Shown here one piece after another: positions 4,114 through 15,233 of a stretch of 64,000 nucleotides of DNA. The DNA is from Eubacteriales bacterium (lineage in GTDB: Bacteria; Bacillota; Clostridia; Oscillospirales; CAG-272): NCBI GenBank assembly GCA_045634385.1, contig JAZRAE010000049.1, positions 5,453 to 69,452 on the forward strand, read 5' to 3'. The notes below the pieces were generated by a model that made no database searches, was not told where the DNA came from, and was given only the letters and a program-made list of their open reading frames with translations. Positions within the stretch are counted from its first letter, which is position 1. The number at the start of each line of letters is the position of its first letter. The position numbers and the translations under genes were made by a program.

Positions 4114-5916
4114 TTAATTATTTTTTTCGTAGATCTCACGGAACTGACGTACGCAGTCGGCAAAGTCCTCGATCGCGCCTGTAATCACCTCCGGCTTTGT
4201 CATATCAATGCCCGCAACGAGCAGACTGTCAAGGGGAGACTTGGCATTACCGCACTTAAGGAAGTCGATATACTGGGAAACGTATGCCTCTCCCTCATTC
4301 TCTATTCTCTTAACTATAGCGGAAGCCGCAGAGATACAGGTGGAGTACTTATAAACGTAGAAGCAGGTGTAGAAGTGAGGAATTCTCATCCATTCATAAG
4401 CAATCTGCTTATCAACGGCAACATCCTTGCCAAAGTAACGTTTAACGAGCTTATAGTATTTCTGATTGATAACCTGTGCAGTAAGAGGCTCACCCTTTTC
4501 AACGAGAGCGTGCATATCTCTCTCGAACTCCGCAAACATCGTCTGACGGTAAAGCGTTCCCTTATAGGTCTCCATAAGCTCATTGAGAATATAGAGCTTC
4601 TCGGTATCATTTTTGGATTCGCGCAGCTTCTTATGAGCCATAAGCAACTCGTTTACCGTAGATGCAACCTCTGCAACAAATATACGGTAACTGGAGTTAT
4701 GAGGCTCATTGTACTTGATGGAGAAGTAAGAATGCATCGAGTGGCCTGCCTCGTGAGCAAGCGTTGAAACATTATCAAACGTGCCGTTGAAGTTGAGAAG
4801 GATGTAAGGCTCTGTACCGGGGCATCCCGAAGAGAATGCTCCGCCTCTCTTGCCCTTTGTGGGATAAACGTCTACCCATCCCTTTTCTGTAAGTCCCGCT
4901 TTGAGGGCGTTGTAATACTCATCGCCAAACACCTCTACAGCCGCGAGTGTTTCTTCAACCGCTTCTTCATAGGTATATTTCTTATCAAGCTCCGAGATAA
5001 GGGGCGCATATACGTCATAAAGATGAAGCTTATCTACGCCGAGAACACGTCTTTTCAGCTCATAGTAATCATAAAGGGGCTGCAGTCCCTTGTTTACTGA
5101 TGCAATGAGGTTGTTGTAAATAACAGGTGTTACCTCATCGGAGAATGTATAAGATTCAATAGAACTATTGAAGTTTCTCGCCTTGGCAAGTGTTGTCTTT
5201 TCCTTTATGTGATTGGAATAAAGAGAAGCAAAGGTATTACCAAACTGTTCGTAGGTCTTGTATAGAGTGCGGAACGCGGCCTGACGGACACGTCTGTCCT
5301 GACTCATAAGGAACGGAACATAATTGGTATCGGTAAGTTCAACTTGCTTTCCGTCCTCACCCTTAATTTTGCCGAATTTAAGATCAGCATTGGCAAACAG
5401 ACTGCGTGTCTGGCTGTTGCCGCCAAGGAAGTCTTCCATCTTCGACATAAGCTGCTCGCACTCATCGGATAGAGTGTGCGCTTTATATCTGACAATAAGA
5501 TCTACAGTACGGCGGAATGTCTCAAGGTCCGGATACTCCAAAAACCACTTATCAAGTGTTTCTTTCTCCACTCTTAAGAGGTAGGGGGAAACAAACCATG
5601 ATACCGTACCCGCCATAACAGCGAGATTTCTTACTCTGCCGTCAAGTGCCTGATATGCATTATTTGTGGTCTCAACAGAGAAGTTGAGTGAGGCATACTG
5701 CCAGAGTCTTTCAATAACCGACTCAATGTCCGTCATATCCTTAAGCGCATTATAAAGGCCTTCTGCACTCGAGATAATAGTCTTCTCATGTGCTGCGAAT
5801 GCCTTGATCATCTTTTCAGCCTTAGCGTAGTCCTCAAAGAACGCCGCCTCATCCTTGTATATTACCGACAAATCCCATTTGTACTTTTGTTCAATATCTT
5901 TTCTTTCAAGTGCCAT
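4114..5916 (-). CDS. pepF: oligoendopeptidase F (M3B metallopeptidase)
   Basis: 600 aa with the HEXXH zinc motif TLAHEAGHSMHSYFS and PepF-like sequence throughout. Confidence 0.9.
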   Translation of the reverse strand: MALERKDIEQKYKWDLSVIYKDEAAFFEDYAKAEKMIKAFAAHEKTIISSAEGLYNALKDMTDIESVIERLWQYASLNFSVETTNNAYQALDGRVRNLAVMAGTVSWFVSPYLLRVEKETLDKWFLEYPDLETFRRTVDLIVRYKAHTLSDECEQLMSKMEDFLGGNSQTRSLFANADLKFGKIKGEDGKQVELTDTNYVPFLMSQDRRVRQAAFRTLYKTYEQFGNTFASLYSNHIKEKTTLAKARNFNSSIESYTFSDEVTPVIYNNLIASVNKGLQPLYDYYELKRRVLGVDKLHLYDVYAPLISELDKKYTYEEAVEETLAAVEVFGDEYYNALKAGLTEKGWVDVYPTKGKRGGAFSSGCPGTEPYILLNFNGTFDNVSTLAHEAGHSMHSYFSIKYNEPHNSSYRIFVAEVASTVNELLMAHKKLRESKNDTEKLYILNELMETYKGTLYRQTMFAEFERDMHALVEKGEPLTAQVINQKYYKLVKRYFGKDVAVDKQIAYEWMRIPHFYTCFYVYKYSTCISAASAIVKRIENEGEAYVSQYIDFLKCGNAKSPLDSLLVAGIDMTKPEVITGAIEDFADCVRQFREIYEKNN

Positions 5917-6126
5917 AATTTTAAAATCTCCTTTTGATTTTTTCTTTATTTTATCATACTTTCGTATTTTTTACAATAGATTTTAAAATTTTTACGAATT
6001 GTTTGATTTTTATTTTCAAAAAAGAAAATTTTACCATATTTACAAAAATTATTATAAATATAATAAAAATGTTCATAATTATATGTTATAATCGATTTGT
6101 AAAATGTAAAAAGGATTTTTAATGCT

Positions 6127-9048
6127 ATGTTGAATTTGAAATCAATCAAGAAAGATTATGTAACCTCCTCAGAGATTGTTCATGCCTTGAAGGGAGTTTC
6201 TATTTCTTTCAGAACAACCGAGTTTGTTTCAATTTTAGGTCCTTCCGGCTGTGGAAAGACAACTTTACTTAACATTATCGGCGGTTTGGATCATTATTCC
6301 GACGGCGATTTATTAATCGGCGGCCGAAGCACCAAGGAATACACCGACAAGGATTGGGACGTGTACCGCAATCATAAGGTAGGATTTATATTCCAAAGCT
6401 ACAATCTCATTCCTCACCAAACCGTGCTTGGTAATGTTGAACTTGCCTTAACAATTGCGGGAATTGAAAAGGAAGAAAGAGTCAGACGTGCAAAAATTGC
6501 ACTCGACAGAGTTGGTCTTTCCGATCAGTACTACAAGAAACCGAATCAGCTCTCCGGCGGTCAATGTCAGAGAGTGGCTATCGCAAGAGCGCTTGTAAAC
6601 GATCCCGAAATACTCCTCGCTGACGAGCCAACCGGTGCCCTTGATACCGTTACCTCGGTGCAGATAATGGATCTCATTAAGGAAATTTCCGAAGAAAGAC
6701 TTGTTGTTATGGTAACACATAACCCCGATCTTGCAGAACAGTATTCTACGAGAATAGTAAGGCTTCTCGACGGTGAGATCATAGAGGATTCCAATCCTAT
6801 GACCAATGAAGAAATTGAAGCCGAGCTCAAAGCCGAGGAAGAATCAAGATTAGCAGATGAAGAGGCAGAAAAAGCCCTTTTCAATACAGAAAACAAAACC
6901 GCGAAGGACAGGATCAAACAGGTTGGCGCAAGAATTAAGAACAAGCGACTCAAGAAAACAAAAATGTCTTTCTTTACCTCGTTTATGCTCTCTGCGAAAA
7001 ACCTTTGGTCAAAGAGAGGAAGAACTGCGCTCGTCGGTTTTGCGGGTTCGATCGGCATCTTCGGTATCGCTATGGTTCTCGCCTTTTCCGCAGGTATTAA
7101 GGGATATGTTGCATCTATGCAGGACGACATGCTCTCAGGCAACCCCATTTTAATCTCAAGCACAGCCTATGACTTTGATATTATTTCGGATATGATGAAC
7201 GATGTTCTCGATTCGGATGACGAAAAGGAACCTTATAAGGTATATATCGATTCGCTTATAGAGTATATTGCGAAGATGGACAAATACTCAACCTCGTTCT
7301 TCATTCAGAACAATCTTACCCAGGAGTATACAGATTACGTCAAAGCCATGCCCAAGGAATATTACAACGCGATGACGTTTAATTACGGCATAGATCCCAC
7401 ATATTCGATCTTCACAAACTTCACTCACTCTACACCGGGTGGTAATACGGCAACCTCACGCATATCAATCGCTGCCTTGACCGATATCTACACCTCGGTT
7501 CTTAAAGAAACCGCATACGGTGATTACTCCTCATATATAACTCAGCTCGTCCCCACCTTCAGCCAAGCACCTAATGATGCCGAGTACATACGCTCTCAAT
7601 ATGAAGTCTACGGAGAGATCGCCGATGATGTCGATGAGGTAATGCTTGTGCTGTCAAAAAACCAAGAGATCTCCGATGTGCTCCTTGCACGACTCGGCAT
7701 ATATACCGAAGCGGAGTTCTACAATTTAGTCTACAAGACAGCAATTAACGACGTGCCAAAGGAAGGAGAAGAAACCGTTCCGGAAGTTGAGCTTATGAAG
7801 GATCTTTACGATCCCTCACTCGACATTGAATACTTTGACTATGCGGACCTTCTATCGGGAAAATACACCTTCACTTGGTATCCCAACGATGCCTTATTCA
7901 ACACTAATCAAGGTGTGAGCGCATCCCTTTCTCCTTTCTCATACAACCACAATGCAAATACCATTACCGAAGAAGGTATTGATCTGAAAATCTCCGGTAT
8001 ACTTATACCAAATGAGAATTACAATTTCGGATGTCTTTCCTCGGGCATCTATTACACCGAAGCACTGACCAACCATATTCTCGAGACAAACGCAAATAGT
8101 GAGATTGTTAATTACGTAAGAGAAAATGGATCTATCCCCTCCTTCATGTCAAGCGGTATACCCGTAGGCGTGTATTACAAATACACTTACAAGCACTTCT
8201 TCCCGAAGACTCTCGAGAACGGTACTACCGAATTATTTGGCGAAACCTACGGTCTTCTCGGTAGTTCCTTCAGCCTTGATGATGCTATGGAATCAATGGG
8301 AAGCATATTAGGTAACTCCGGCAACGGCTCCACATCCGAAGGGGCAGGTTCAAACGGAGGAACGGGATTGGGATCTGCCGGATCAAGCGTAGATGTTTCT
8401 GCTCTTGCGAATATGCGAACAATTTCTCTGCGTATGATAGGCGGAGATACGGTTGCAAGCAGCATGTACATTTACCCCTTGAGCTTCGACTCAAAGGATC
8501 TTGTCACCGCATATCTTGATGCCTGGAACGGTGACGGAACAATAACTGTAGGAGGCATAGAATATACCGCAACCGAACGTAACAGCATAAAATACAACGA
8601 CACCCTTGAGCTTATAATCAATATGGTAAATACAATGATCGACATCATCTCGTATGCCCTGATCGCCTTTACATCGGTATCGCTTATCGTTTCTACCGTT
8701 ATGATAGGTATAATTACCTATGTATCGGTAGTTGAAAGAATCAAGGAGATCGGCGTCATACGTTCACTCGGAGGACGCAAGAGAGATATCAGACATCTCT
8801 TCAATGCAGAAACGTTCATCATTGGATCACTCGCAGGTTTGATAGGTATAATAGCGACGTATATTATCACATCAATTTTAAGCGCAGGACTTGCGCCCTT
8901 AATTCACTATTCGCCTATTGCATTCCTTCCTGTAGGTAACTCACTTCTACTCATTCTTCTGAGCGTAGCTCTGACTCTCATCTCGGGACTTATCCCCGCA
9001 TCAAGTGCAGCAAAGAAAGACCCCGTTGTAGCACTTAGAACAGAATAA
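6127..9048 (+). CDS. MacB-type fused ABC transporter (N-terminal ATPase plus FtsX-family permease with a very large extracytoplasmic domain)
   Basis: Walker A GPSGCGKTT, signature LSGGQCQR, Walker B ILLADEPT. TM1 is at about aa 300, followed by a roughly 510-aa non-hydrophobic domain. The C-terminal FtsX block is VERIKEIGVIRSLGGRKRDI plus 3 TM segments. Confidence 0.85.
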   Translation: MLNLKSIKKDYVTSSEIVHALKGVSISFRTTEFVSILGPSGCGKTTLLNIIGGLDHYSDGDLLIGGRSTKEYTDKDWDVYRNHKVGFIFQSYNLIPHQTVLGNVELALTIAGIEKEERVRRAKIALDRVGLSDQYYKKPNQLSGGQCQRVAIARALVNDPEILLADEPTGALDTVTSVQIMDLIKEISEERLVVMVTHNPDLAEQYSTRIVRLLDGEIIEDSNPMTNEEIEAELKAEEESRLADEEAEKALFNTENKTAKDRIKQVGARIKNKRLKKTKMSFFTSFMLSAKNLWSKRGRTALVGFAGSIGIFGIAMVLAFSAGIKGYVASMQDDMLSGNPILISSTAYDFDIISDMMNDVLDSDDEKEPYKVYIDSLIEYIAKMDKYSTSFFIQNNLTQEYTDYVKAMPKEYYNAMTFNYGIDPTYSIFTNFTHSTPGGNTATSRISIAALTDIYTSVLKETAYGDYSSYITQLVPTFSQAPNDAEYIRSQYEVYGEIADDVDEVMLVLSKNQEISDVLLARLGIYTEAEFYNLVYKTAINDVPKEGEETVPEVELMKDLYDPSLDIEYFDYADLLSGKYTFTWYPNDALFNTNQGVSASLSPFSYNHNANTITEEGIDLKISGILIPNENYNFGCLSSGIYYTEALTNHILETNANSEIVNYVRENGSIPSFMSSGIPVGVYYKYTYKHFFPKTLENGTTELFGETYGLLGSSFSLDDAMESMGSILGNSGNGSTSEGAGSNGGTGLGSAGSSVDVSALANMRTISLRMIGGDTVASSMYIYPLSFDSKDLVTAYLDAWNGDGTITVGGIEYTATERNSIKYNDTLELIINMVNTMIDIISYALIAFTSVSLIVSTVMIGIITYVSVVERIKEIGVIRSLGGRKRDIRHLFNAETFIIGSLAGLIGIIATYIITSILSAGLAPLIHYSPIAFLPVGNSLLLILLSVALTLISGLIPASSAAKKDPVVALRTE

Positions 9049-9059
9049 TTCAACACGGT

Positions 9060-9091
9060 ACGGCACCTGCATTCGCGGGTGCCGTCTTTTT
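9060..9091 (+). terminator. rho-independent terminator after the ABC gene
   Basis: ACGGCACC-N10-GGTGCCGT followed by CTTTTT. Confidence 0.75.
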
Positions 9092-9190: not shown

Positions 9191-9219
9191 TTGACTTTTC
9201 TTACGAATAATGATATACT
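9191..9219 (+). promoter_or_regulatory. sigma-A-type promoter of the GTPase-NYN gene
   Basis: TTGACT-N17-TATACT, about 39 nt upstream of the ATG. Confidence 0.5.
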
Positions 9220-9257
9220 GTTTAAGCAATGATTTTTCAAGAAACGGAGGTGCGCGA

Positions 9258-11849
9258 ATGAAAAATATAGTAATGGGCATTATCGCTCATGTTGACGCGG
9301 GTAAGACGACCTTATCCGAGGCTATACTGTATATGAGCGGTGCAATAAAGCAGCTTGGCAGAGTTGACAAACGTGATGCGCACCTTGACACCTACTCTCT
9401 TGAGAGAGAACGCGGTATCACGATATTTTCAAAGCAAACCGTATTTGACTTTGGTGAAACGCACGTATCTTTAATCGATACTCCGGGTCACGTTGACTTT
9501 TCCTGTGAGACAGAAAGATCGCTTTCCGTACAAGACTACTGTGTGCTTGTCATCAGCGCAACGGACGGTATAAAGCCACACACAAAAACCCTTTGGCATC
9601 TTTTAGCCGCAAGACGAATACCCACATTTATCTTCGTCAATAAAACAGATATTTCCGACAGAACCAAGGACGAGCTTTTTGATGAGTTACGCACTGTTCT
9701 ATCGGAGAAGTGTGTAAACTTCACACGTGTAGGAACATACGAATTTTACGACGAACTCGCAGGGAAAGATGAATCACTAATTGAAGAATTCCTTGATACA
9801 GAGATGCTCTCGGACGAAAGCATTAAAGAGGCGATACGACAAAGAATGATATTCCCCTGTTTCTTCGGGTCTGCCCTAAAGCTCAAAGGAGTTGAAGAAT
9901 TACTGATGGGAATTGATCGTTTCACGCGTGAAACCCCCTACCCCGTGTCACTTTTTGGAGCTAAAGCATATAAGATTATGCGAGATCAGAACGGAAGAAG
10001 AATGACACTCGCCAAGATAACGGGCGGAACACTTTATCCGAAATCGATGATAGAATACCGTACCAAAAGCGGAGACATAGTAAGCGAAAAGGTAGAGGAA
10101 ATCCGCCTTTTGACTCATGATAAATCAAGGCCTCTGAAAGAGGCTGAACGCGGTACTCTCTGTGCCATCATAGGACCTACGGAAACTGCGGCAGGCACAG
10201 GAATCGGAATCGAGGCAAACGATGTTTCTATGCTCTCACCCGTACTTGATTACAGAATGATACTGCCAAAGGATGTGAGTCCGTATGATGCGTATTTAAG
10301 ACTCACATCTCTCGCGGAAGAAGACCCGTCACTTGGTATAAGCTGGGTATCGGGTGCTAAAGAAATTCGTGTCAGTCTTATGGGCGAAATACAGCTTGAG
10401 GTACTGAAAAGAATCATATCAGAGCGTTTCGGTATGGCTGTAGAATTTGATGAAGGAAGTATTCTTTACAGAGAAACCGTGGAAAACGAAGTTATAGGCT
10501 CGGGACACTTTGAACCGTTGAGGCACTACGCCGAGGTTCATGTCAGAATAGAGCCTCTGCCGGAGGGGTCAGGTATCATATCCGAGAGCGATTGCTCAAG
10601 CGATCTTCTTTCGTCCAATTGGCAAAGACTTATACTCACGCATATAGACGAGCGAGTACATCGTGGAGTGCTTACCGGTGCACCTTTAACCAATGTGAAA
10701 ATCACGCTTATAGCAGGAAAAGCGCACCTAAAGCACACAGAAGGAGGCGACTTCCGTCAGGCAACCTATCGCGCGATCAGACAAGGTCTTATGAAGGCGA
10801 GATCCGTGATACTTGAGCCCACATTTGATTTTCGAATCGAAGTGCCCACAGATTATCTCGGCAGAGTAATGACGGACGTTACAAATATGCACGGTACGTC
10901 AAAAGCGCCCGAAATATACGAGAACTATTCCATACTCGAAGGAAACTGTCCCGTAGCAACAATGCGTTCCTATGCGAGCGAGCTTCGTGCTTTTACACGC
11001 GGTGAAGGAAAAATAACAATGAACGTCGGAGCGTATGCACCTGCACATAATCAAGATGAGATAATTTCCAATCGGGCATACGATCCCCTACTTGATGAAC
11101 GAAACCCCGCAAGCTCTGTATTCTGTAAGGCAGGAGCGGGTTATGCAGTGCCCTGGGATGAAGCAGATGCAATGATGCACATCAGAATGGATGGCGGTAC
11201 AAATGAAAGTCCAAGCGATAACGAAGACGTGCCCGTTAGAGCGCGTGCCATCAAATACGGCGGCACTGTGGAAGAAGACAAGGAGTTAATGCGAATCTTT
11301 GAGGCAACCTACGGTAAAATCAAACCGAGAAAGGTTGTCGAAAGACAGGAAAATAAAGCTCCGGAGCAAGTTAGAAAACAAAAGAGTAAGCCGTATAAGA
11401 ATCTCAGCGAGCATCTCATCCTCGACGGATATAATGTCATCTTTGCTTGGGATGAATTACATTCCGCAGCAGAAAACGATCTTTCCTTAGCAAGAGATAT
11501 TCTGACAAGGATACTCTGCAGCTACACCGCTTTTCGCAAATGTCACGCAACAATCGTCTTTGACGCGTACAAAAGACGGGGTGGAGAAGGCAGCGAGGAG
11601 CAATGCGGAAACGTAAAAGTAGTCTTTACCAAAGAGGCGGAGACAGCAGATGCTTACATCGAAAAGATAAGCAAAACTCTTGTTGAAAACTACACGGTAA
11701 GAGTGGTTACATCCGACCTTGAGGAACAGTACGTAATACTCGGTAACGGAGCTTTGCGAGTCAGCGCCAAGGAATTTCGACGCGAGATCGAAAACACAAC
11801 AAGCGAAATAAATGAAACGATAGAAAAAATGAAATATAAATCAAAATAG
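9258..11849 (+). CDS. TetM/EF-G-like translational GTPase fused to a C-terminal YacP/Rae1-like NYN ribonuclease domain
   Basis: Start set at MKNIVMGIIAHVDAGKTT, preceded by GGAGG. G motifs are AHVDAGKTT, DTPGH and NKTD. Domain V reads LEPTFDFRIEVPTDYLG. A charged linker follows, then LILDGYNV..TIVFDAY..ETADAYIE..VVTSDLEEQ (NYN), at about nt 11409..11800. Confidence 0.85.
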   Translation: MKNIVMGIIAHVDAGKTTLSEAILYMSGAIKQLGRVDKRDAHLDTYSLERERGITIFSKQTVFDFGETHVSLIDTPGHVDFSCETERSLSVQDYCVLVISATDGIKPHTKTLWHLLAARRIPTFIFVNKTDISDRTKDELFDELRTVLSEKCVNFTRVGTYEFYDELAGKDESLIEEFLDTEMLSDESIKEAIRQRMIFPCFFGSALKLKGVEELLMGIDRFTRETPYPVSLFGAKAYKIMRDQNGRRMTLAKITGGTLYPKSMIEYRTKSGDIVSEKVEEIRLLTHDKSRPLKEAERGTLCAIIGPTETAAGTGIGIEANDVSMLSPVLDYRMILPKDVSPYDAYLRLTSLAEEDPSLGISWVSGAKEIRVSLMGEIQLEVLKRIISERFGMAVEFDEGSILYRETVENEVIGSGHFEPLRHYAEVHVRIEPLPEGSGIISESDCSSDLLSSNWQRLILTHIDERVHRGVLTGAPLTNVKITLIAGKAHLKHTEGGDFRQATYRAIRQGLMKARSVILEPTFDFRIEVPTDYLGRVMTDVTNMHGTSKAPEIYENYSILEGNCPVATMRSYASELRAFTRGEGKITMNVGAYAPAHNQDEIISNRAYDPLLDERNPASSVFCKAGAGYAVPWDEADAMMHIRMDGGTNESPSDNEDVPVRARAIKYGGTVEEDKELMRIFEATYGKIKPRKVVERQENKAPEQVRKQKSKPYKNLSEHLILDGYNVIFAWDELHSAAENDLSLARDILTRILCSYTAFRKCHATIVFDAYKRRGGEGSEEQCGNVKVVFTKEAETADAYIEKISKTLVENYTVRVVTSDLEEQYVILGNGALRVSAKEFRREIENTTSEINETIEKMKYKSK

Positions 11850-11933: not shown

Positions 11934-12917
11934 TTAAAGCGATAATGCAAACTGTACTTTACTTTTTGTACGTTTTATCTCTTTCATGTATTTAGACGTC
12001 ATCTTAATTGAATTTTCATTTTCCGCCAATACCTCTGCACGAACTTCTTTTAGTCCTATCATTCGTGCATATTCAATAATAGCACGCAGTGCGCGTGAAC
12101 CTAACCCACGTGAGTGACAGTCCGGCAAAATTCTCACCGCCACAGATGCACATCCGCGATAATCAAAATCATAAACTGTAGCCTCACCAACGAACTCCCC
12201 CTTCTCACGAACGGCAAGGGCAATCGCAATACCGTCGGACATCTCTCGCCTTGCAACATCAAGATAAAAGTCAGCATTGCCCGACGGATTATCAGCATCC
12301 GCGTCATAACCCCAATATTTATTAAGATTACGGTTGCGGCACAGTTCTCCGTATCTCTCTTTGTCAAAATCGCACAGTTCATCAAGCATAATACCGTCAA
12401 GCTCAAGTGTAGGTATCTCGTCAAGCATGTCACATTCGTTGTTTACTTTCACATAGAATGAGTCATCGTCATCCTCGTAAGTAAAAGCATCAATATGTGG
12501 GAATACCGAGCATAAAAACTCAATTTCATCACGCGGAACGTCTGTAATTATCAAAGGAATAAGCTCCCGCCTTGCATATGAAGCGAGATTAAGACACGCC
12601 TCTTCAGCATTTGAGTCTTCGTCAAGCATAAACGGAAGCGGGAAGACGTATCTTTCTCCGTCATAGATTCTTGCGTACAAGACCTTATCGAGATAGAAAA
12701 AGGCTGCCGATGTCTCATCGGTCATAGATTCCGAAATTTCAAAAACAATCTCAATCACATCATCTGCAAAGTCACGATTTACCGAAAGACGGCTTATTAT
12801 TTCTTCTTTGAAATCATATTCTTGACTTTCTCTGTGACCTTCGCAAAAGAGTTCTTTATTCTCCTGCACAGCCATATTACACAGCTCTTGCACTTCTCGA
12901 AAATGGATCTCAGCCAC
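11934..12917 (-). CDS. GNAT family N-acetyltransferase with an N-terminal domain of unknown function
   Basis: The C-terminal GNAT core is ATVYDFDYRGCASVAVRILPDCHSRGLGSRALRAIIEYAR. The GTG start at 12917 is preceded by AGGAGG at 9-nt spacing. The start is uncertain because it lies inside the upstream kinase ORF. Confidence 0.7.
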   Translation of the reverse strand: MAEIHFREVQELCNMAVQENKELFCEGHRESQEYDFKEEIISRLSVNRDFADDVIEIVFEISESMTDETSAAFFYLDKVLYARIYDGERYVFPLPFMLDEDSNAEEACLNLASYARRELIPLIITDVPRDEIEFLCSVFPHIDAFTYEDDDDSFYVKVNNECDMLDEIPTLELDGIMLDELCDFDKERYGELCRNRNLNKYWGYDADADNPSGNADFYLDVARREMSDGIAIALAVREKGEFVGEATVYDFDYRGCASVAVRILPDCHSRGLGSRALRAIIEYARMIGLKEVRAEVLAENENSIKMTSKYMKEIKRTKSKVQFALSL

Positions 12918-14548
12918 TCGCCAAATCCTCCTTCTTCCTCAATCACATCATCCTTATAAACAATATTCGGTATAATAGGAATATACATCGAAGAGGTGAA
13001 GACGCCATCATCTTCTTGAGATGAAAATCTAATATCCATAGCGTTTGCAAGTTTCATACACGAACGAAGACCTATTCCGTTCTTCTGCGCCAAATCCGCG
13101 TTATTTCCAACATAATTGCAAACTTTTATTGTCATTTCATCGGTTTCAGAGCCCACAAACACCGTGACAGTTTTTTCCTTGTCTGCGTACTTCATTATAT
13201 TTGAGAATATATTTTCCACAATTCTCATAAGCTGCGGAGGATCAGTAACAACAATAACATTACAGAGGAATTCATTACTCTGCTCTTCGAAGTTAAACTC
13301 AATATTGTACCCCTGCTCGCGAAGAAGAAAGACGTGTCCGGAAAGCATCTGATCTACAAGAGTACGTGCATCGCACTCTTGAACCTCAACCTCAACACCG
13401 CCGCCGTAAACGAGAAAATAGCCAAACATATCATCAGACATTTTTTTAAGCCTTAATGCAGTCCTCTCGGATATTTCGATATACTGCTGCATATCCTCAT
13501 CCGTTGCATTAAGCTTCATAATATCAAGATAACCGAGTAACACCGTTAGAGGGGTTCTTATATCATGAGACATTGCGGTAATCAGCTCCCTATTAGCATC
13601 AAGAGCTGCTCTTTCCTTCTCAATATTCTCAAGCATTGAGGTTCTCATATATTCTACGTCTGTACATAGTCTTGTAATCTCGTCCTCTCCGTGAGCCGTA
13701 ATTGCCCTATTAATTTCACCGTCTGCTATAGCAGTAACTTCCCTGCCAAGTTGAGTAATTCTTCTCGTTATATCGAAGAAGTACAGCCACATAACAAGTA
13801 TAAATATCAAAACTGCGAGGACGCTGGAAATAATGTTGAAAATATCATAGTAAAAATACTCTGTATAATCAACCATCGAAACGAGTAGCACTCCGTCTGA
13901 TGCTACGATAGGATGCGAACCGTTTGCAACAGCCTCGGCAATAAGTTCATCTCTTGTAGGCGTCTTTACGATAATACCGGAACTTGTGAACTTATTATCG
14001 TCCTTTCCGGATGAGTTGCCCGTTTTATCAGTACTATTTTCGCCTGTGTTCTCTGCATCCGCTCCATCAGAGCCGGGCGTTGAGTCTGCGCCGGTAGATT
14101 CTCCACCGCCAACTTCAGAACCGCTCTCGCTATTTTCTACCGAATTATCCGGCACATCATCTGCATTTTCTTTGTTTTCTCCCATTTCCGGGGTATTATT
14201 CTCCTCTTGTCCGGATTCAAACAGTAAGTCGTCACCCTTATAGACAAGAACGTACAGATATTTATTTTTCTTAGCCCACTCGGCTATTTTTTGAGTATCA
14301 TCGCAACTTAGACCAAGCTCGGTTACATAGTTCTGCAGATCGTCTTTATACTCATTTACTCTTTCTTCCTTCTTCTCTTCCGACAAGTACTTTAGCTCTA
14401 TATACTTGTTAAAAGCAAAGTTGGCACAAAAGAATATAATCAACGCAAGAGCGAGTGCAAAAAGCATCACGATCAACATTGTCATCCTAAGCGAAGTATA
14501 TTCCTTTGTCGAGCGTTCTTCATTATGCTTGATCTTTTCTCTAATCAA
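12797..14548 (-). CDS. sensor histidine kinase (HisKA/HATPase_c)
   Basis: H-box AMSHDIRTPLTVLLGY, N-box FSNIMKY and G-box GIGLRSC, with two TM segments flanking a sensor domain. I prefer a TTG start at 14548 (RBS GGGGAAAGGGA, 8-nt overlap with the regulator stop). The longest ORF starts at 14608. Confidence 0.8.
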   Translation of the reverse strand: MIREKIKHNEERSTKEYTSLRMTMLIVMLFALALALIIFFCANFAFNKYIELKYLSEEKKEERVNEYKDDLQNYVTELGLSCDDTQKIAEWAKKNKYLYVLVYKGDDLLFESGQEENNTPEMGENKENADDVPDNSVENSESGSEVGGGESTGADSTPGSDGADAENTGENSTDKTGNSSGKDDNKFTSSGIIVKTPTRDELIAEAVANGSHPIVASDGVLLVSMVDYTEYFYYDIFNIISSVLAVLIFILVMWLYFFDITRRITQLGREVTAIADGEINRAITAHGEDEITRLCTDVEYMRTSMLENIEKERAALDANRELITAMSHDIRTPLTVLLGYLDIMKLNATDEDMQQYIEISERTALRLKKMSDDMFGYFLVYGGGVEVEVQECDARTLVDQMLSGHVFLLREQGYNIEFNFEEQSNEFLCNVIVVTDPPQLMRIVENIFSNIMKYADKEKTVTVFVGSETDEMTIKVCNYVGNNADLAQKNGIGLRSCMKLANAMDIRFSSQEDDGVFTSSMYIPIIPNIVYKDDVIEEEGGFGEWLRSIFEKCKSCVIWLCRRIKNSFAKVTEKVKNMISKKK

Positions 14549-15233
14549 TTTGATATCCCTTTCCCCACACGGTCCTGATAACCTTCTGTCCACTCGCACT
14601 ATCCTCAAGCTTTCTTCTGAGGTTCAATATATGAACGGTTACATTATTACCGGATGAAGCAAGAGGTATCTCGCCCCATACCGCACGATAAAGCTCATCA
14701 GAGCTAACGACACGTCCGCGGTTCTTAACAAGGTAGATAAGCACATCAACCTCTTTATCTCTCATATCAATTCTGACACCGTTCTTTGAAACCTCGCGAG
14801 TGTCAACGTTAACCGTTACCCCCGCATTAAGTCTTTCACCCTCAACAACGTCATCGGCCTTTACACCATATGAATTATAGCGTCTTGTAAGAGCCTCAAC
14901 CTTCATAAGCAATTCACCTGAAGAGAAAGGCTTTATAACGTAGTCATCTCCGCCGCTCGCATATGCAGCCGCCTTGTCACGGGACATAGACTTTGCCGTC
15001 AGGAAGAGCACGGGCACAGGTGAGAAGCCGCGAATGACCGCAGTTGCTTCAATTCCCGACATATGAGGCATCATAACGTCCATAATGCAAAGATCAATGC
15101 TTCTGTCATTTCTTATACATTCGATAGCAGCAAGCCCATCGTGAGCCTCAATAACCTCATATTTAGCCTTTTCAAGAAGGATACGCAAAATTCTTCTTAT
15201 ATCCGCCTCATCATCAACAATTAATATACGCAT
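14541..15233 (-). CDS. OmpR-family response regulator
   Basis: MRILIVDDEADIRR..DLCIMDVMMP receiver domain plus a winged-helix C-terminus ending ..IRTVWGKGYQID. RBS is GGAGGG. Confidence 0.9.
   Translation of the reverse strand: MRILIVDDEADIRRILRILLEKAKYEVIEAHDGLAAIECIRNDRSIDLCIMDVMMPHMSGIEATAVIRGFSPVPVLFLTAKSMSRDKAAAYASGGDDYVIKPFSSGELLMKVEALTRRYNSYGVKADDVVEGERLNAGVTVNVDTREVSKNGVRIDMRDKEVDVLIYLVKNRGRVVSSDELYRAVWGEIPLASSGNNVTVHILNLRRKLEDSASGQKVIRTVWGKGYQID

Follow-up and report, generated by a model that had tools for sequence, protein, structure and literature searches.

The window, a 64-kb stretch of DNA from a member of the Clostridia, contains one gene in which a translational GTPase (trGTPase) resembling the tetracycline ribosomal protection proteins is followed by a nuclease domain of the YacP/Rae1 type. 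The locus raises the question of whether this fusion is genuine and what a protein of such composition could do on the ribosome. Our preferred answer, to which we assign a probability of roughly one half, is that the fusion is a chromosomal, housekeeping-type, ribosome-docked and GTP-gated mRNA endonuclease for the rescue of stalled ribosomes in gut Clostridia.

The architecture is already known, and its observation here is not new. TetM-like/NYN_YacP fusions of Clostridia were described by Atkinson in 2015 in BMC Genomics (PMC4342817) and the same architecture by Matelska et al. in 2017 in NAR (PMC5499597); about ten species were listed and the function was left open in these studies. The window gene combines a Tet-subfamily trGTPase and a C-terminal NYN_YacP domain in one polypeptide from Clostridia, and is with this identical architecture and taxon a member of the published group, with no difference in kind. 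The preliminary description of the locus, made from the sequence alone, had known of no experimental characterisation; our literature searches found none for the fusion or for any family member, although the architecture itself had been published. Added here are a larger family (at least 146 clusters at 50% identity), its assignment to a distinct sub-Tet subfamily with stand-alone members, the anatomy of the tether and the conservation of both active sites.

Gene structure and upstream signals

In the ORF check of the window, positions 9258-11849 of the forward strand formed a single unbroken frame of 863 codons and a stop, as the preliminary description had read it. The gene and the signals upstream of it are as follows.

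9060..9085, + strand: intrinsic-terminator-like hairpin, 11-bp stem with 8 GC pairs, followed by a T-tract, CTTTTTATGT
9191..9219, + strand: sigma-70-type promoter-like site, TTGACT, 17-nt spacer, TATACT, with extended TG
9246..9250, + strand: Shine-Dalgarno sequence GGAGG, 7 nt 5' of the ATG, read from the sequence
9258..11849, + strand: coding sequence of the trGTPase-NYN fusion protein, 863 aa and a TAA stop

The hairpin is predicted to end the upstream ABC/FtsX transporter gene and would delimit the separate transcription unit of the fusion on its 5' side. The promoter-like site, a consensus match only, agrees with the consensus at 10 of 12 positions; the gene appears to be monocistronic, with an ordinary site of this kind. 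These signals also support the start codon at 9258 over an upstream ATG at 9210, because GGAGG lies 7 nt upstream of the former and the promoter-like site ends past the latter.

The GTPase moiety

Domains were assigned from Pfam profile matches, all of them above the gathering scores; the structure was taken from an AF2 model and fold matches were obtained with Foldseek. The N-terminal part of the protein is divided into five domains.

9258..9947, + strand: G domain, aa 1-230 (Pfam GTP_EFTU, residues 4-222, E 5.6e-49)
9948..10241, + strand: domain II beta-barrel, aa 231-328 (beta-strands 234-317 in the AF2 model; EF-G_D2 matches in relatives)
10242..10454, + strand: domain III, aa 329-399 (Pfam EFG_III, residues 349-397)
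10455..10802, + strand: domain IV, aa 400-515 (Pfam EFG_IV, residues 401-514; TetO alignment)
10803..11051, + strand: domain V, aa 516-598 (Pfam EFG_C, residues 518-599)

The G domain carries G1 (AHVDAGKTT), the switch I motif RGITI, G3 (DTPGH, with the catalytic His78) and G4 (NKTD). The G1-G4 motifs, including the catalytic His of DxxGH, place the protein in the translational GTPase superfamily, and the Pfam layout G, II, III, IV, V is that of the EF2/EF-G family. The top Foldseek matches of the model were EF-G/EF-2 structures (E down to 9e-53), ribosome-bound EF-G among them. All motifs quoted in the preliminary description (AHVDAGKTT, DTPGH and NKTD, as well as LILDGYNV, TIVFDAY, ETADAYIE and VVTSDLEEQ) were found.

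The impression that this moiety is closer to Tet proteins than to EF-G, also voiced in the preliminary description, was confirmed by the profile scores, which reached 395 bits for the NCBIfam model tet_protect (NF012153) and 286.8 and 306.7 bits for the EF-G models TIGR00484 and NF009381, respectively. Among PDB sequences that matched in one continuous stretch, TetO (4v6v) ranked first (E 1e-73); it aligned end to end with its G' region free of long gaps, whereas the EF-G match fell into two stretches. All these scores fell short of the model cutoffs: 395 bits is about half of the curated tet_protect cutoff of 775, NF033148 gave 276.5 bits against 1100, and the two EF-G models require 659.4 and 583 bits, respectively, so that the protein is not EF-G proper.

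Domain IV carries the family-specific segments GHFEPLRHYAEV (416-427) and HLKHTEGGDFRQAT (490-503) where Tet loop III has YSPVS. In the alignment, the loop III tip of Tet(M) (505-510, LYYSPV, including Pro509) corresponds to AHLKHT within the family-conserved HxKHTEGGDFRQAT. In Tet proteins this tip (YSPVS, Pro509) displaces tetracycline (PMC7456112), and Tet(M) withstands some exchanges in loop III (PMC4750697), so that the missing motif is by itself not decisive against a Tet role. Judged by its sequence, the GTPase moiety represents a distinct Tet-like subfamily that has stand-alone members too, one of which (L019) scored 419 bits with tet_protect, and it is neither a Tet protection protein nor EF-G.

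The nuclease domain

11415..11846, + strand: NYN_YacP endoribonuclease domain, aa 720-863 (Pfam NYN_YacP, residues 720-860; PDB 5MQ8/5MQ9)

The C-terminal domain matched NYN_YacP (PF05991) with an E value of 3.8e-46 and 157.5 bits, above the gathering score of 24.6, and aligned with the crystal structures 5MQ8/5MQ9 of B. subtilis YacP/Rae1 at E 4e-25 over 139 residues. With the NYN part alone as query, no Rae1-specific NCBIfam model matched, so that Pfam and PDB carry the assignment to the NYN family. The acidic residues are D723, D769, D798 and D820, accompanied by N726. All four aspartates are kept relative to Rae1, and D723 and D798 align to Rae1 D7 and D81, which are exchanged in the published catalytic mutant D7N D81N (PMC10351889). 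Both the profile search and the Rae1 alignment thus bear out the NYN_YacP identity with intact acidic positions put forward in the preliminary description.

YacP has been described in the operon context gltX-cysS-mrnC-yacO-yacP (PMC5499597). The domain studied here is not a free single-domain protein in such an operon, but the C-terminus of an 863-aa protein. A second NYN domain was found neither in the 64-kb window nor in two partial replicons.

The C-terminal module and the tether

11052..11180, + strand: C-terminal mini-module, aa 599-641 (helix, beta-hairpin, helix; pLDDT about 95)
11181..11414, + strand: tether, aa 642-719 (disordered at 647-670 and 691-712, pLDDT <50 there, around a conserved helix)
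11268..11327, + strand: tether helix, aa 671-690 (helix 671-685 in the AF2 model; the motif recurs across the family)

Behind domain V the preliminary description had placed a charged linker of about 90 aa. This holds for the E/K/R-rich tether at residues 642-719, but residues 599-641 form a folded and conserved mini-module. Its motif, YDPxxDxxNPxxSVFCxxGAGxxVPWDE, is conserved across the family; the module is present in the stand-alone relatives L019 and P0270, both of which end right behind it, and absent from TetO. The region equivalent to the tether comprises 45-144 aa across the family (median 87) and is E/K/R-rich, with the helix motif (ED)KELxxIFExTYGxIK or, in a shorter form, ELxxIFERTYGxIK. 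The AF2 model of the fusion had a pLDDT of 91.5, with two disordered tether segments.

Distribution and conservation of the fusion

The frame was continuous at all 17 orthologous genome loci (42-87% identity), and neither a stop nor an RBS lay at the junction. Of the 150 best representatives of clusters at 50% identity, 146 contained both modules, and in 143 of these the NYN domain followed the GTPase match clearly on the C-terminal side. These 150 representatives, which are diverse (37-57% identity), were aligned as family members. On the GTPase side K16, T55, D74, K129 and D131 were identical in 150/150 sequences and T17 and H78 in 149/150; on the nuclease side D723, D769 and D798 were each kept in 148/150, N726 in 149/150 and D820 in 150/150. 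Because both residue sets are essentially invariant across 150 such diverse members, the alignment implies selection on both activities.

Relatives were assigned to Ruminococcus, Clostridia, Eubacteriales, Agathobacter and Monoglobus, and the gene occurs in several clostridial orders, with 40-60% divergence. Cultured carriers are Agathobacter rectalis and Monoglobus pectinilyticus, and complete replicons carry the fusion. Among sequencing runs, only those of gut-metagenome DNA contained the sequence. A missing NYN match, misaligned acidic residues or orthologues split by a stop and an RBS, against which the preliminary description had cautioned, were not encountered.

Among the metagenomic gene calls, some divide the gene into two proteins (P0086 and P0070, for example). 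The breaks fall within the GTPase, between domains IV and V, and are due to one GAG-to-TAG change (a nonsense mutation in domain V) and to duplicated blocks (misassembly). Matches of 300-485 aa, which at first resembled natural short or split forms, were rejected as an indication of two separate genes, as they comprise contig-end fragments, one nonsense mutation and one misassembly.

Genomic context

The neighbours in the window, an ABC/FtsX transporter, a GNAT gene and a two-component system, recur in close relatives. In some lineages the fusion gene lies directly 3' of infC-rpmI-rplT; a trigger-factor-like gene directly downstream and thrS or a gltX-like ORF nearby were also observed. The context is thus translation-linked in several lineages. 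It is not conserved across the family and says little for the window gene, whose own neighbours are of the transporter, GNAT and two-component type.

Among the plasmid-database entries, only large non-mobilizable replicons with housekeeping genes (secA, methionine aminopeptidase) carry the fusion, and plasmid mobility was rejected on these grounds. Phage carriage was rejected as well, since the two best 'phage' matches are unverified faecal contigs with the full fusion among bacterial housekeeping-type ORFs. A survey of 19 loci revealed no conserved partner, antitoxin or immunity gene, and the fusion matched none of the PADLOC-DB defence families. In A. rectalis a BrnT/CopG toxin-antitoxin pair adjoins the gene, on the opposite strand and at this one locus only. 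Sporulation genes neighbour the fusion at two loci only, SpoVAD at L009 and CotJA/CotJB in Monoglobus.

Proposed function

Rae1 is a translation-dependent mRNA endonuclease that acts on stalled or collided ribosomes and feeds trans-translation (PMC12407103, PMC10351889, PMC13622287). The preliminary description had taken cleavage at the A site as its premise, following a docking model of 2017-18 that is now outdated; in a 2026 preprint (PMC13622287) Rae1 is connected with collided ribosomes and with tmRNA. Its idea of a nuclease delivered to the ribosome is still the natural reading, predicted from the architecture.

The analysis establishes the architecture, an intact gene, two conserved active sites, a flexible tether and contexts that are non-mobile and linked to translation, whereas ribosome binding, an mRNA substrate, sensing of stalls, gating by GTP and a link to rescue are what we infer. 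The N-terminal 640 residues, a paralogue of GTP-hydrolysing factors, would dock at the ribosomal factor-binding site, with domain IV probing the A-site region, while a catalytically competent Rae1-type NYN nuclease would be held on the mostly disordered tether of 45-144 residues. The nuclease would then cut mRNA on or beside stalled or collided ribosomes, leading to rescue, for example by tmRNA. Ribosome recognition would be built into the protein and gated by GTP.

When EF-G or a Tet protein is bound to the ribosome, the A site is taken up by domain IV itself (PMC7456112), and for this reason the tethered NYN domain could presumably not share the A site with domain IV on the same ribosome at once. 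With the A site so occupied, the cut would probably fall outside it; candidate positions are the side on which mRNA enters the bound ribosome and the interface with a neighbouring ribosome.

A more specific version of the rescue endonuclease, which we consider tentative and rather doubtful, casts the trGTPase as a dedicated sensor of an arrested ribosome state, such as a ribosome that has stalled with its A site empty, or one that is collided, rotated and unable to translocate. By docking in a GTP-dependent manner, it would permit the Rae1-type cut at the ribosome boundary, amounting to a bacterial no-go decay in one polypeptide. In many Clostridia the fusion might also replace free Rae1.

Alternative explanations

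The substrate might not be mRNA, given that the first predictions for NYN_YacP named rRNA or tRNA as its target and that gene neighbourhood linked it to the rRNA/tRNA processing operon (PMC4342817, PMC5499597). The fusion would then use its GTPase to guide a nuclease that matures rRNA, or one that inactivates or turns over ribosomes in stress, stationary phase or sporulation. This would suit a trGTPase that docks beside rRNA elements as well as those loci that adjoin ribosomal protein genes or the sporulation genes named above. We nevertheless regard it as unlikely, with perhaps a minor chance of being right: all experiments on Rae1, the sole NYN_YacP enzyme studied, show translation-coupled mRNA cleavage, the sporulation neighbours are confined to two loci, and the long flexible tether suggests a target distant from the factor site rather than adjacent rRNA.

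That the fusion acts as a ribosomal protection protein of the tetracycline type, with the added RNase domain aiding or altering antibiotic resistance, as Atkinson suggested in 2015 (PMC4342817), is improbable. In its favour, tet_protect is the best curated HMM and TetO the best PDB sequence match, RefSeq names the A. rectalis orthologue a TetM/TetW/TetO/TetS family protein, and Tet(M) partly tolerates loop III substitutions. However, the tet_protect score stops at about half of the cutoff and the YSPVS tip is replaced by the family-conserved HxKHTEGG. Chromosomal housekeeping contexts, non-mobilizable replicons and a spread over several orders at 40-60% divergence are unlike a mobile resistance gene, and drug displacement would leave the strictly conserved nuclease unexplained.

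Ribosome-directed nucleases are common among toxin and defence effectors, and the fusion could in principle be a stress shut-off or anti-phage abortive-infection toxin that, once activated, destroys RNA on ribosomes globally. We consider this very improbable. The 2026 preprint raises, as a speculation, an action of Rae1 on ribosome-stalling phage mRNAs (PMC13622287), and the BrnT/CopG pair lies beside the gene in A. rectalis, but only there and on the opposite strand. The lack of a PADLOC match and of a conserved partner, antitoxin or immunity gene across the 19 loci, the chromosomal housekeeping contexts, the apparently monocistronic gene with its ordinary promoter-like site and the bacterial nature of the ORFs on the 'phage' contigs all leave the anti-phage option of the preliminary description unsupported.

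An assembly or frameshift artefact joining two separate genes is already refuted, as the frame is uninterrupted at 17 independent genome loci and in 146 cluster representatives, the fusion is encoded on complete replicons of cultured strains, and the split gene calls break away from the GTPase/NYN junction.

Implications

The way in which Rae1 recognises stalled or collided ribosomes is open; its binding is transient, and a ribosome-bound structure of the free protein is lacking and so far not achievable according to the 2026 preprint (PMC13622287). A natural Rae1-GTPase fusion provides a ready-made experimental handle. Since trGTPases lock on ribosomes with non-hydrolysable GTP analogues, the fusion could probably be trapped there with GDPNP and could give the first structure of a ribosome-engaged Rae1-type nuclease. 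The fusion would also reveal whether ribosome rescue in abundant gut Clostridia proceeds differently from that in Bacillus. For annotation, some RefSeq entries label members of this subfamily, at half of the curated cutoff, as TetM-family tetracycline resistance proteins, which can inflate resistance-gene counts in gut metagenomes, and HMM-only surveys of 'Rae1' would count these fusions as ordinary Rae1.

Comparison with known systems

The nearest non-fused relative of the GTPase moiety is the stand-alone 'translation factor GTPase family protein' of Lactobacillales, encoded for example on Ligilactobacillus salivarius megaplasmids and in Limosilactobacillus (L019). It is 43-45% identical over residues 1-644 and shares GHFEPLRHYAEV, GGDFRQAT and the SVFC...GAG...W C-terminal module with the fusion, but ends just past this module, without tether and nuclease; its RefSeq label is often that of a Tet protein. 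Tet(M)/Tet(O) (PDB 3J9Y, 4V6V) have the five-domain layout in common with the fusion, which differs from them in its extra conserved 40-aa C-terminal module, tether and nuclease, in its score below the family cutoff, in the replaced loop III YSPVS tip and in not being located on mobile elements here.

With B. subtilis Rae1 the fusion shares the NYN_YacP fold, with about 42% identity over 123 aligned residues (tblastn), and from this likeness the same chemistry is expected and probably the same link to translating ribosomes. Rae1, however, is a free protein (crystallised chain of 181 aa) that binds ribosomes transiently, whereas the nuclease of the fusion is covalently tethered to a trGTPase.

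In function, the closest counterparts would be SmrB of E. coli and Cue2/NONU-1 of eukaryotes, endonucleases that cut mRNA at stalled or collided ribosomes for rescue, and Hbs1-Dom34 would be analogous as a trGTPase delivering a factor to the stalled A site. No system is known in which a trGTPase and a nuclease share a single chain. SMR and NYN are unrelated nuclease folds, and in these counterparts recognition is provided by separate domains or proteins, whereas in the fusion it would be built into the same polypeptide as the nuclease.

Domain layout and authenticity of the fusion

The GTPase and NYN_YacP modules are encoded in one frame. This fusion, put forward in the preliminary description from the sequence alone, was confirmed by Pfam domains and by 17 loci, and all the motifs quoted there were found in the ORF translation.

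Features of the fusion gene and its surroundings (window positions)
6127-9048, + strand: ABC ATPase and FtsX permease in a single chain of 973 aa; long middle region without domain match
9060-9085: strong terminator-like hairpin, closing the upstream ABC/FtsX transporter gene
9191-9219: promoter-like site, TTGACT, 17 nt, TATACT, extended TG
9258-11849, + strand: fusion CDS, one open frame of 863 codons, ending in TAA
11934-12917, - strand: GNAT ORF, overlapping the histidine-kinase ORF by ~120 nt as listed
12797-14608, - strand: histidine-kinase ORF

Features of the fusion protein (residues)
4-222: GTP_EFTU (Pfam, E 5.6e-49)
349-397: EFG_III (Pfam)
401-514: EFG_IV (Pfam)
518-599: EFG_C (Pfam)
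599-641: C-terminal module of the GTPase, helix/beta-hairpin/helix, well-folded and conserved; motif NPxxSVFCxxGAGxxVPWDE
642-719: tether, two disordered stretches around a conserved helix
647-670 and 691-712: disordered tether stretches, pLDDT <50
671-690: conserved tether helix; motif ELxxIFERTYGxIK
720-860: NYN_YacP (Pfam, E 3.8e-46, 157.5 bits against a gathering threshold of 24.6)
720-863: NYN domain, with a long helix at its C-terminal end

An alternative ATG at 9210 opens the longest formal ORF. The ATG at 9258 appears to be the better start, because homologues start with MK(K/N)I, this ATG is preceded at 7 nt by GGAGG (9246-9250) and the sole good promoter-like site ends downstream of 9210. 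Since a terminator-like hairpin precedes the gene and the GNAT gene on its 3' side is convergent, the fusion gene appears to be monocistronic in the window.

An AlphaFold2 model of the fusion, built from 72 family members (mean pLDDT 91.5, pTM 0.74), resembles EF-G/EF-2 structures in its fold, ribosome-bound ones among them. What had been described as a charged linker after domain V is a tether at residues 642-719 and, before it, the folded module at 599-641, which is also present in stand-alone relatives whose chains stop directly after it. Across the family the tether measures 45-144 residues (median 87) and is enriched in E, K and R.

Across independent MAGs of Ruminococcus, Clostridia, Eubacteriales and Candidatus Copromorpha, the genome scan revealed 17 loci with the fusion, at 42-87% identity. 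At each of these the tblastn match was unbroken from the G domain to the NYN domain and the frame was open throughout (17/17). One locus is truncated by a contig end; the 16 others, which are complete, have frames of ~870-920 codons. When 1.84 billion cluster representatives were searched exhaustively with phmmer, 146 of the best 150 matches (E <1e-172) contained both modules, and in 143 of these 146 the NYN match started past the end of the GTPase match. Cultured carriers are Agathobacter rectalis DFI.5.28 (WP_306784676.1) and Monoglobus pectinilyticus (WP_320690501.1).

Two metagenomic 'split' versions were considered as a natural two-gene form and rejected as artefacts or defects. One of them (L020, 6450-9071), called as two proteins, has a single in-frame TAG where domain V begins (GAG to TAG); its downstream piece has 26 member sequences in its 90%-identity cluster. 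In the other (L021, 5736-9251) internal blocks are duplicated, as is typical of misassembly, which they suggest here as well. Because neither break lies at the GTPase/NYN junction, the artefact check proposed earlier, namely a search for two separate genes in orthologous loci, came out in favour of a genuine fusion. With MAG loci, 146 cluster representatives and cultured bacteria all carrying it, the probability of an artefact is negligible.

An 873-aa cluster representative of the same GTPase subfamily (P0243) has Aminotran_4 (residues 671-864) in place of the NYN domain, which may reflect read-through into an adjacent gene or a rare alternative fusion.

Conservation of both catalytic centres

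The family alignment comprised 150 sequences with 37-57% identity to the window protein. P-loop Lys16, switch-I Thr55, Asp74, Lys129 and Asp131 were identical in 150/150, while Thr17 and the catalytic His78 (DTPGH) were kept in 149/150. In the NYN domain, Asp723, Asp769 and Asp798 were each kept in 148/150, Asn726 in 149/150 and Asp820 in 150/150. This domain aligns to Bacillus subtilis YacP/Rae1 (5MQ8/5MQ9, E 4e-25), with Asp723 and Asp798 corresponding to Rae1 Asp7 and Asp81; Rae1 D7N D81N is the published catalytic-dead mutant (PMC10351889). The alignment argues that the GTPase and nuclease catalytic centres are both under selection.

The three parts conserved together are a translation-factor body competent as a GTPase, a Rae1 domain competent as a nuclease and, between them, a flexible tether. 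We give roughly even odds (about 0.5) to a ribosome-docked mRNA endonuclease that serves stalled-ribosome rescue or quality control. A nuclease directed at rRNA or tRNA, for maturation or ribosome inactivation, is considered unlikely.

Relationship of the GTPase to Tet proteins

By sequence score, the GTPase part is closest, among named families, to the Tet ribosomal protection proteins: tet_protect gave 395 bits versus 287-307 bits for EF-G, and the best PDB sequence match was TetO (4v6v, E 1e-73, a single stretch). No named family's curated threshold was reached, the cutoffs being 775 for tet_protect and 583-659 for EF-G. Bound tetracycline clashes with the loop III tip of domain IV (YSPVS, Pro509) in Tet(M)/Tet(O) (PMC7456112; PMC4750697), whereas the fusion has HLKHTEGG in place of this tip, as part of HxKHTEGGDFRQAT, a motif kept across the family. 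Domain IV holds another family-specific motif, GHFEPLRHYAEV. Stand-alone proteins of ~640 aa, such as L019 of a Limosilactobacillus MAG and the 642-aa cluster representative P0270, share both motifs and the C-terminal module, and Ligilactobacillus salivarius megaplasmids carry homologues spanning residues 1-641. Given the sub-threshold scores and the own motifs and module common to the stand-alone proteins, the GTPase is, as judged from its sequence, a member of a separate Tet-like subfamily that is uncharacterised and is named 'translation factor GTPase family protein' in RefSeq. The fusion extends this scaffold by a tether and a nuclease.

Tetracycline-type protection with an accessory RNase would agree with the nearest family by score and with the TetO match, but the scores below the curated cutoff, the replaced loop III tip and a context unlike that of a mobile resistance gene make it quite improbable.

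RefSeq applies the label 'TetM/TetW/TetO/TetS family tetracycline resistance ribosomal protection protein' to the Agathobacter rectalis fusion (L022 7001-9727, NZ_CP143948.1) and to its stand-alone relatives on Ligilactobacillus salivarius megaplasmids (hits H4-H25). The subfamily scores only 395-419 bits, where the curated cutoff is 775. The label is probably an over-annotation and could lead to too many resistance genes being counted in gut metagenomes.

Genomic context

In the window and close relatives the neighbours encode oligoendopeptidase F, the ABC/FtsX transporter, GNAT, a histidine kinase and a response regulator (the first and the last two assigned by eye from translation). The GNAT, kinase and response-regulator genes stay with the fusion down to ~62% identity; at one locus (L006) all four genes share the fusion's strand and could be an operon. 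The 973-aa ABC/FtsX protein showed weak matches to PADLOC mads/AriA-type ATPase models, which are probably generic ABC similarity.

In four distant members (L012, L013, L014 and L016) the fusion lies directly 3' of infC-rpmI-rplT on the same strand (~4600-5990), with infC at 4642-5262, rpmI at 5312-5509 and rplT at 5522-5875 in L014, the only locus where rpmI was identified, by eye. A trigger-factor-like gene (FKBP_C + Trigger_C) lies directly 3' of the fusion in L013 (8757-9860) and L016 (8646-9731, overlapping the fusion stop). Some lineages may have a second ribosome-linked partner in this gene; neither copy matched the N-terminal ribosome-binding domain. At another locus thrS is near, and at yet another the fusion adjoins rsmH-like and gltX ORFs (by eye). 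Database replicons carrying the fusion are non-mobilizable and contain housekeeping genes.

Complete fusions also occur on two UNVERIFIED 'Bacteriophage sp.' faecal contigs (L024 5397-8024, MT835563.1; L025 5883-8492, MT835514.1). Their surrounding ORFs are bacterial by eye (feoB-, gltX-, glpK- and greA-like); phage carriage was rejected, since both contigs resemble bacterial DNA that was deposited as phage.

The overall context is what would be expected of a housekeeping function inherited vertically and linked to translation, and not of mobile resistance or defence. The fusion had no match among PADLOC defence models and no partner gene was conserved across the loci compared. The suggested defence option was not borne out on either count, and with the housekeeping context added, a toxin or defence role is very improbable.

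Comparison with Rae1 and ribosome-bound factors

The architecture is not new: it appears in 2015 and 2017 papers, so the novelty assumed in the preliminary description falls away. In Matelska et al. 2017 (PMC5499597), NYN_YacP joined to a TetM-like domain is reported from some Clostridia, with no role assigned. Our literature searches found no experimental paper on the fusion; the architecture is already known and its function uncharacterised. Specialists who know both papers would not be surprised by the fusion. With the 2025-26 work on Rae1, however, a naturally occurring fusion has become a timely tool for addressing an open question, and carriers are available in culture. As a free gene, yacP/rae1 normally lies 3' of rlmB/yacO. 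According to a 2026 preprint (PMC13622287), tmRNA tagging after collisions depends on Rae1, its mode of ribosome recognition is an open question, and a ribosome-bound structure is absent because binding is transient. The phylogenetic survey of Rae1 in that preprint used hmmsearch at E <1e-10 and states no size filter, so that 860-aa fusions would count as ordinary Firmicutes Rae1.

The general idea of a ribosome-delivered RNA-cleavage device remains reasonable. Its A-site premise is outdated, since the 2017-18 A-site docking model of Rae1 (summarised in PMC10351889) was superseded by the 2025 mapping. In the endonuclease reading favoured here, the GTPase in its GTP form would dock at the factor-binding site and put domain IV into or close to the A site, like EF-G and Tet proteins. 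Docking would bring the tethered nuclease to one particular ribosome, whose mRNA it would cut, and GTP hydrolysis would then free the factor. Because the A site would be filled by domain IV, the tethered nuclease most likely acts outside it. It could cut at the side where mRNA enters the bound ribosome or at the point where this ribosome meets a neighbouring one; the second location would match the position of cleavage by free Rae1.
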